32,000 nucleotides of DNA from Candidatus Brocadia sp. (lineage in GTDB: Bacteria > Planctomycetota > Brocadiia > Brocadiales > Brocadiaceae): assembly GCA_021650915.1 (NCBI GenBank), contig CP091279.1, positions 2,640,001 to 2,672,000 on the forward strand. The letters are read 5' to 3'. Under the pieces are notes generated by a model. It ran no database searches. It was not told the origin of the DNA and was given only the letters and a program-made list of their open reading frames with translations. A program made the translations under genes and the position numbers. Below are positions 23,131 through 23,358 of this stretch, piece by piece; position 1 is the first letter of the stretch; each line of letters begins with the position of its first letter.

Positions 23131-23358
23131 TAGTATTCCTGGCGCAGCACAGCCGCAACCAAATTTCCTTTATGAAAGCGGGGAGATTGCTTCGGAAAAG
23201 GCCTCGCAATGACAGCGACCATGCACTTTGATGGCACACTGCACGTTGTCATTGCGAGTGAAGCGAAGCAATCTTTCGCTCATAAAAAACGGCACCGCCT
23301 GAAAGAGGTTTGTGAAAAAACTTACAGAAAAAAGAAGTTTTTATACAGTAATACTATA
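23131..23358 (+). repeat. Repeat family A, copy A2 (complete, forward)
   Basis: Near-identical to A4 (30529-30747) and to the reverse complement of A3 and A1. Its ends are tagtattcctg ... cagtaatacta (short terminal inverted repeat). The internal long imperfect palindrome is agattgcttcg..ctcgcaatgac...gtcattgcgag..cgaagcaatct. Confidence 0.9.

Follow-up and report, generated by a model that had tools for sequence, protein, structure and literature searches.

Family A, a short composite repeat next to start codons in Candidatus Brocadia, is probably a non-autonomous mobile element

The DNA analysed here, called the window in this text, is a stretch of 32,000 nt from Candidatus Brocadia which holds four copies (A1 to A4) of a composite repeat of about 220 bp, named family A, together with one short relative. 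An earlier note on this DNA had reported that one end of the repeat abuts the start codons of unrelated genes, and had suggested a MITE-like element (MITE stands for miniature inverted-repeat transposable element) which donates an outward promoter or a 5' leader. We compared the copies with related loci, and four independent comparisons of empty and filled sites point to a mobile element. In our reading, family A is probably a transposable element of Candidatus Brocadia that is selfish, composite and non-autonomous, and is carried as a passenger in leaders and spacers.

Copies of family A and their anatomy

The copies of family A and the sequences that interrupt or resemble them are arranged in the window as follows, where L and P numbers, here and below, are our handles for loci and proteins.

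13186-13281, + strand: short member of the superfamily, 96 nt, which has both ends (the left one being ACGCAGCAATCTGCAACC) and a small GC hairpin, and lacks the doublet that resembles repetitive extragenic palindromes (REP)
17990-18139, - strand: right-hand part of A1 (right arm to right end), ending 15 nt upstream of the MarC start codon GTG 17974
18140-19644, - strand: insertion sequence (IS) of the IS110 family, 1505 bp, with transposase open reading frame (ORF) 18495-19505 (Pfam DEDD_Tnp_IS110 and Transposase_20)
19645-19719, - strand: left-hand part of A1, from the left end up to the left arm; the flanking ATA (19717-19719) is counted in
23139-23358, + strand: A2, nested in a family-B MITE
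27580-27799, - strand: A3, antisense to both neighbours (FBA and phosphoketolase) in a 1.1-kb repeat-filled spacer
30529-30747, + strand: A4, ending 13 nt upstream of the beta-CASP start codon ATG 30761

Within A2, all on the + strand, the following parts can be distinguished.

23139-23141: left triplet CTG
23142-23160: conserved left end, GCGCAGCACAGCCGCAACC
23184-23213: left arm
23214-23247: loop, 34 nt
23248-23274: right arm, a 27-mer
23316-23342: A/T hairpin, AAAAACTT..AAGTTTTT
23358: last nucleotide of the right end, ...AATACTATA

Using a repeat finder and alignments, the four full copies were recovered at essentially the positions given in the earlier note, which had placed A2 at 23131-23358, and their description as near-identical agrees with pairwise identities of 93-100%. 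Four occurrences of the 27-mer that forms the right arm were counted in the window, against none in 100 shuffles. The neighbouring genes had also been named properly, since Pfam assigns them to MarC, His_Phos_1 (branch-1 histidine phosphatase) and Beta-Casp, and the gaps to the start codons are right (15 nt to GTG 17974 with AGGAGG in between, 53 nt to ATG 23412, and 13 nt to ATG 30761 with AAGGAG in between). Other details of that description need correction. The split of A1 into two pieces is real, and the interruption is the IS110-family insertion sequence; the uninterrupted form is found in L121 (6085-6304). The segment 13211-13282, which had been taken for a partial copy, belongs to the short member listed above, which is complete and has both family ends. 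The long imperfect palindrome is present, but its loop has 34 nt and not 43.

Indels in the left arm (AAAAGG-CC, AAAAGGCCC, AAAAGGCCCC) change the reading frame from copy to copy, and family A is therefore non-coding, as the earlier note had stated. In public annotations, 'genes' of 52-68 aa are placed in A copies (L121 6161-6319, 9798-10004 and 16699-16878), and MarC is annotated with 302 aa (P0001) instead of 247, being extended by 55 codons into the element. Contig structure is also affected around the repeats: L121 departs from the order of the window in the middle of the A3 hairpin (window 27689, L121 14507), the contigs of L124 and L125 end there, and L125 starts inside the IS110 element. 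For annotation, family A thus yields spurious ORFs, lengthened gene calls and assembly breaks.

A metagenome scan with a pattern made of the right arm and the right end gave 31 Brocadia-like loci, which together with the window provide about 40 non-redundant ends. These sequences have one shell in common, formed by two conserved asymmetric ends, left GCGCAGCACAGCCGCAACC and right ...TTTTTATACAGTAATACTATA. The left end has 19 nt, (R)CGCAGCACAGCCGCAACC, and the right end about 55 nt, GGGGTTTGTGAAAAAACTTACAAAAAAAGAAGTTTTTATACAGTAATACT(ATA), finishing with ...AAGTTTTTATACAGTAATACTATA. The same shell encloses differing internal cargo in relatives of 96, 99, 112, 123, 156, 217-226 and 283-289 nt. 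In family A, the cargo is an inverted doublet similar to REPs and to REP doublets forming hairpins (REPIN), and its hairpin of about 100 nt folds significantly better than shuffled sequences (z -4.5 as RNA and -3.8 as DNA).

The superfamily is short, non-coding and present in many copies (96-290 nt, frame-shifting indels, about 40 non-redundant ends in Brocadia contigs), as expected of MITEs, but terminal inverted repeats (TIRs) are lacking. The left GCGCAGCACAGCC and the right ..CAGTAATACT are not complementary, and the sole inverted match near the ends is a 6-nt subterminal TTCCTG/CAGGAA in a subset of copies. The pair gtattcctg/cagtaatac, proposed earlier as the TIRs of A2, does not hold, as its left member is mostly sequence of the family-B MITE that hosts A2. 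The subterminal hairpins are dissimilar as well, the left one being GC-rich and varying by subfamily and the right one A/T-rich (AAAAACTT..AAGTTTTT). Family A is best placed among the non-autonomous small repeats; it behaves like a MITE and does not have TIRs.

Compared with known repeats, family A is similar to MITEs of the Correia element type (Correia repeat enclosed elements, CREE) of Neisseria in several features. Both are 100-250 bp in size, non-coding, multi-copy and polymorphic for presence and absence, and both have A/T-rich, TA-containing targets in short spacers and a long hairpin, and are often co-transcribed, which for family A can be proposed from its position. However, family A has no TIRs, its ends are asymmetric, its insertion is polar and without a clean TA duplication, it carries or creates no promoter consensus, and its ends enclose exchangeable cargo. 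The BOX elements of Streptococcus pneumoniae (boxA-boxB(n)-boxC) also combine conserved end modules with a variable interior and lie in intergenic regions near genes, and no transposase is known for them, but their sequence is unrelated, and family A differs by its target TTC^ATA, its fresh insertions and its nesting in MITEs. No Rfam family covered the element or its 27-nt unit when the window was searched at the gathering threshold, 23000-23450 with permissive settings, and 19 cross-phylum loci; the matches in those searches were limited to a c-di-GMP riboswitch and tRNA. Literature searches on the DNA motif, the repeat peptide translations and anammox with MITE returned nothing relevant.

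Empty sites, target and insertion polarity

Presence/absence polymorphism was found in four independent comparisons. First, at MarC, the site in Brocadia sp. BROELEC01 (L158) is empty and reads ctatttatcgtc-GCA-aggaggatactctctATG (tatcgtc-GCA-aggagg..ATG), and in the species of the window it is filled and reads ctatttattgtc-ATA-[A1]-ATA-aggaggacactctctGTG (tattgtc-ATA-[A1]-ATA-aggagg..GTG). Second, the beta-CASP site is empty in two relatives (L165 and L163), with ...caATAATA/AAGGAGactacaATG (AAGGAG..ATG) and ...caATAACA/AAGGAGGaaaccgATG (AAGGAGG..ATG), where the slash marks the junction, and it is filled in the window with ...AATACTATA/AAGGAGtaacccgATG, that is ACTATA/AAGGAG..ATG.

Third, family A has entered a MITE of family B. 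This superfamily is represented in the window by the following copies.

12311-12437: family-B member
21093-21219: family-B member
about 23040-23389: family-B MITE of the B2 type hosting A2, with left TIR at about 23040-23065, internal hairpin at 23095-23124 and right TIR at 23364-23389
25840-25921: family-B member
27939-27972: family-B member (diverged)

The members of family B are genuine MITEs: their TIR (GTAACACTTTAGTTTTTTGAAAAA) measures about 26 nt, at least three internal types exist, and one case (L133) has a duplication of about 8 bp. In L133 and L148, B2 copies are intact and have the empty sites TATTC-ATA-GAGAG and TATTC-GTA-GAGAG. The filled form is TATTC-ATA-[A]-ATA-GAGAG, and window A2, L127 and L132 are filled copies. 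The insertion point of A2 is ..ACAATAGTATTC^ATAGAGAG, and the 53-nt gap before the histidine phosphatase gene is largely the terminal repeat of family B. Fourth, the AmmeMemoRadiSam radical-SAM gene in L148 (9717-11078) is present as two half-ORFs, split by an antisense A copy of 219 nt. Other Brocadia genomes have intact orthologues of 380 aa with ..EPVVYYEYMYDTA.. at this place (P0241-P0243), the gene is likewise intact in L166 DNA, and at the DNA level the empty site is tatattc-ATA-ATA-aac and the filled site tatattc-CTA-[A]-ATA-ATA-gac.

Judged from these DNA comparisons, family A is a recently active, mobile element, and the MITE-like character proposed in the earlier note (non-coding, multi-copy and mobile) is supported by the empty sites at MarC, beta-CASP, the family-B MITEs and the radical-SAM gene. 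An all-against-all comparison of the metagenome loci gave no polymorphic insertions. The histidine phosphatase of the window has an identical protein in Candidatus Brocadia assemblies GCA_000987375.1, GCA_021463075.1 and others, the loci with this identical protein are 99.5-99.9% identical to the window, and MarC matches at 100% and 80% identity are labelled Candidatus Brocadia.

The junctions show a fixed insertion polarity at about WWTTC^ATA-R. The left flank is C/A/T/A in 33/27/33/30 of 35 non-redundant junctions, with weak A/T before it, and in the right flank a purine occupies +1 in 29 of 34, nothing else being conserved. Therefore, the TA-flanked duplication suggested earlier is not what the junctions (35 on the left side) display, as C-A-T-A is conserved on the left and merely a purine is preferred on the right. 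ATA stands on both sides in about 80% of copies. In head-to-tail tandems, neighbouring elements share the exact junction ...ACTATA/GCGCAGC..., and such arrays can form because the right end recreates the target.

These junctions also bear on another explanation, in which family A is a palindrome-associated transposable element (PATE) of the IS200/IS605 type, which a Y1 HUH transposase would move in single-stranded form and insert 3' of CATA without duplication. Like such elements, family A has asymmetric ends without TIRs, strict polarity, a short motif conserved in the left flank only and subterminal hairpins; its right end TATA resembles the target, head-to-tail arrays occur, and the left triplet that is not ATA in the fresh insertion fits the absence of a true duplication. 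However, the subterminal hairpins of the two sides are unrelated, and on the left side the hairpin differs among subfamilies, whereas similar hairpins would be typical of PATEs, and ATA usually stands on both sides. IS200/IS605 elements have a strong lagging-strand bias, but the strands of family A are mixed locally, with both orientations (three plus and two minus copies) within 17 kb of one replichore. In addition, no TnpA was found near any copy in about 330 kb of Brocadia loci. We hold this explanation to be the least probable of those weighed here.

Position next to start codons

The proximity to start codons could be explained by promoter activity, in which the A/T-rich right end is an outward promoter or UP-like element and the copies are kept because they drive the adjacent gene. 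In agreement with this, of the four copies in the window, three are directed at an adjacent start, and L155 and L139 have further copies at a distance of 16-17 nt from starts. In a gene-orientation census of 40 non-redundant right ends, for which genes were called by our own codon-usage gene caller, 26 are turned toward a gene start and 14 toward a gene 3' end (p ~0.08). Furthermore, the spacers in L139 and at A4 and A1 are mostly or entirely taken up by the element, and the downstream gene there needs read-through or an internal promoter. For example, in L139, two elements fill the entire spacer of co-directional genes, beginning 6 nt behind the first gene and stopping 17 nt short of the second, so that transcription must traverse the elements or begin inside them.

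However, other observations argue against promoter donation. A sigma-70 scan found no outward -35/-10 in A1-A4, inspection of the consensus gave no hexamer pair with legal spacing, and the only promoter-like matches of the scan were TATAGT on the opposite strand and -35 boxes in the flanks. In L143, a canonical TTGACA-17-TATAAT lies between the element and the gene, outside the element, and standard promoters are thus in use in this organism. Where the flanking genes are co-directional, 12 copies are in sense and 9 in antisense; the other flank classes comprise 6 divergent and 2-3 convergent cases (for example, L121 16732-16948), and one copy lies inside a coding gene. The gap between element and start varies from 13 nt to over 300 nt, and just four or five copies are closer than 20 nt. 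Abutting start codons is also not special to family A, because the unrelated family-B MITEs have ends at 16 nt from the start of FBA and at 22 nt from that of the histidine phosphatase. A sigma-54-like GG-N10-GC reading out of the left end was considered separately and rejected, since it has low information content and its spacing is not kept in the short member.

With no -35/-10, ratios of 26:14 (p ~0.08) and 12:9, and Shine-Dalgarno sequences that pre-exist, the outward promoter of the earlier note is not supported, and we regard promoter donation as unlikely. The orientation census toward downstream starts which that note had proposed, run here on metagenome contigs, gave a mixed answer, in that right ends facing starts are in excess but sense and antisense copies are nearly balanced. 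The donation of a 5' leader stands in part. It is plausible by position for the copies 13-17 nt from a start, which must be transcribed through or hold an unrecognised promoter, but at MarC and beta-CASP the empty orthologous sites already have the Shine-Dalgarno sequences and start codons, which thus were not donated by the element.

The passenger reading explains the same positions best, through target choice. ATA-purine sites directly 5' of Shine-Dalgarno sequences would bring the element next to start codons, and the compact spacers of Brocadia, under purifying selection, may offer few other tolerated positions. After insertion, the element would ride in the 5' leader or intercistronic RNA, where its long hairpin may affect mRNA stability, processing or read-through. 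More generally, the case indicates that a repeat end can come to abut start codons by target choice and compact spacers, without promoter donation.

Several points weigh against this interpretation. A true duplication of ATA is uncertain, as 8 of 41 copies have CTG, CTA or ATG for a left triplet, the fresh gene disruption has the triplet pair CTA/ATA, and the empty MarC site has GCA. In about 330 kb of Brocadia loci, neither an autonomous partner nor a transposase with the same ends was found, so the cognate transposase sought by the earlier note did not appear; the multi-copy ORFs in these loci are just pseudo-ORFs of the element and ordinary paralogous families, and mobility is therefore inferred solely from insertion polymorphism. 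The 26:14 excess toward gene starts could reflect weak selection for an effect on expression, and it comes from contigs that were picked by the right arm and right end pattern and annotated with our own ORF caller. Finally, co-transcription and any effect of the hairpin are our inference.

The palindromic core and its 27-nt unit across phyla

The hairpin of family A raises a further explanation, in which the repeat is a host-adopted element like REPs or bacterial interspersed mosaic elements (BIME), with the hairpin serving as a 3'-end stabiliser, RNase III site or partial terminator, and with spread by a REP-associated tyrosine transposase (RAYT-type). The core is indeed similar to REPIN, with two imperfect palindromic units of about 27-30 nt forming an inverted doublet; the hairpin is stable, and in antisense it is followed by CUUUUAU. 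In addition, two independent insertions of the IS110-family element share one position within the unit. On the other hand, the conserved, orientation-defining parts are the ends of the shell, shell relatives without the hairpin exist, a terminator scan called no terminator-like site in family A, and two diverged copies (A5 in L121 and the copy at L155 9198) have no compensatory changes in the arms. We rate host adoption of this kind as quite improbable for family A as a whole.

The insertion of the IS110-family element was analysed at two loci. In A1, it lies at GTCAT/TGCGAG in the left arm; it is absent from four assemblies of the same species (L121-L124), with a 3-nt CAT overlap at the junction (L121, about 6233-6235). 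In L130 (1-88), this IS end is found directly next to CATTGCGAG within the right arm of another A copy. Because two A copies in different loci were hit at the unit, the data suggest that this IS110 element targets the REP-like unit site-specifically. Some IS110 relatives target REPs. The transposase has no exact protein record in the databases.

The exact 27-mer GTCATTGCGAGTGAAGCGAAGCAATCT was found in at least 120 contigs from many phyla in a scan with one genome per species (contigs listed as L001-L120), where about 1e-4 chance matches are expected. The matches listed include Nitrospirota, Bacteroidota, Chloroflexota, Planctomycetota, Patescibacteria, Actinomycetota, Spirochaetota, Firmicutes, Alpha-, Gamma- and Deltaproteobacteria, and others, and among them the overlap with family A is limited to about 27-30 nt, with the shell ends absent. 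The general form of the unit is GTCATTGCGAG-[inner]-CG(A/T)(A/G)GCAATC, where the inner part is 5 nt or an 11-nt mini-hairpin such as GCCTGAAAGGC. In the 120 loci listed, 268 units were counted, of which 71% have a partner within 80 nt, mostly inverted and with gaps of 15-27 nt, and the units occur singly, as inverted doublets and in tandem arrays (L032, period 112).

Exact copies are also found in coding sequence, 26 of the 126 among the matches listed being inside open frames of at least 200 aa. For example, in the leucyl-tRNA synthetase (LeuRS) of Winogradskyella (L040 1993-2019), the 27 nt are read in frame as VIASEAKQS where the sequence of the Thermus thermophilus LeuRS structure is gapped, and the chorismate synthase of Dehalococcoidales (L023 7711-7737) has a VIASEAKQS insertion at a gap in the sequence of the Aquifex structure. 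Clustering of ORFs in the 8-kb flanks of the 120 loci gave no enriched transposase; GIY-YIG-like and GxxExxY-like small proteins were found at three loci each. Carriage by phages was considered as the cause of this breadth and rejected, because just two viral contigs matched the exact 27-mer.

The unit can be compared with REP/BIME/REPIN sequences and with other palindromic repeats. Like the former, it is a 20-40-nt imperfect palindrome (about 27-40 nt in the doublet of family A) whose outer stem ATTGC/GCAAT is conserved and whose inner mini-hairpin varies; it occurs as single units, inverted doublets and arrays, and an IS110-family element seems to insert into it site-specifically. In contrast, REPs are specific to species or genera, whereas the 27-nt unit is exactly conserved in many phyla and is not confined to extragenic DNA, with about 20% of the exact copies in long ORFs. 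It also lacks the GTAG-type 5' tetranucleotide, and in family A the doublet is cargo and not the mobile unit. Rickettsia palindromic elements (RPE, 100-150 nt) are, like the 27-nt unit, palindromic and located both in intergenic regions and in frame in conserved proteins, and small dispersed repeats (SDR) of cyanobacteria, reportedly described by Elhai in 2008, were also compared. However, the 27-nt unit is far shorter and spans many phyla, compared with one genus or one phylum for RPE and SDR.

Our tentative proposal, held with clearly less confidence than the passenger reading, is that the 27-nt unit GTCATTGCGAG-TGAAG-CGAAGCAATCT and its mini-hairpin variants may be an undescribed ultra-small palindromic element which is spreading or maintained across bacterial phyla. 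It may be inserted in frame as VIASEAKQS in essential enzymes and used as a landing site by IS110 elements, and family A may be a lineage-specific shell that captured and amplified one doublet. If the unit is confirmed to be mobile or functionally constrained, such a cross-phylum distribution would be unusual, as REP-type repeats are normally lineage-specific. For anammox genomes, the A shell, the family-B MITEs and the arm-targeting IS110 element together make up a nested, recently active set with no fewer than three kinds of small mobile DNA.

Other features of the window were observed as well. A c-di-GMP-I-GGC riboswitch aptamer (22795-22906, + strand; Rfam RF03167, 62 bits, gathering 59) sits upstream of the leader that belongs to the histidine phosphatase-PGI-FBA cluster and is filled with MITEs, with no ORF between the aptamer and the MITEs and with a terminator-like hairpin and T-run near 22920-22975. 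In one relative (L163 2226-4892), FBA is followed directly by beta-CASP, without phosphoketolase. The long spacers at 27150-27560, 27830-27930 and 30390-30500 are full of other short GC-rich hairpin repeats, for example ccccctggcggggg and cccctcttgagaggggg, and of repeats of the GCAGGGGCAGGTTTCAAACCTGCCCCTGC type, which presumably resemble motifs in many phyla.

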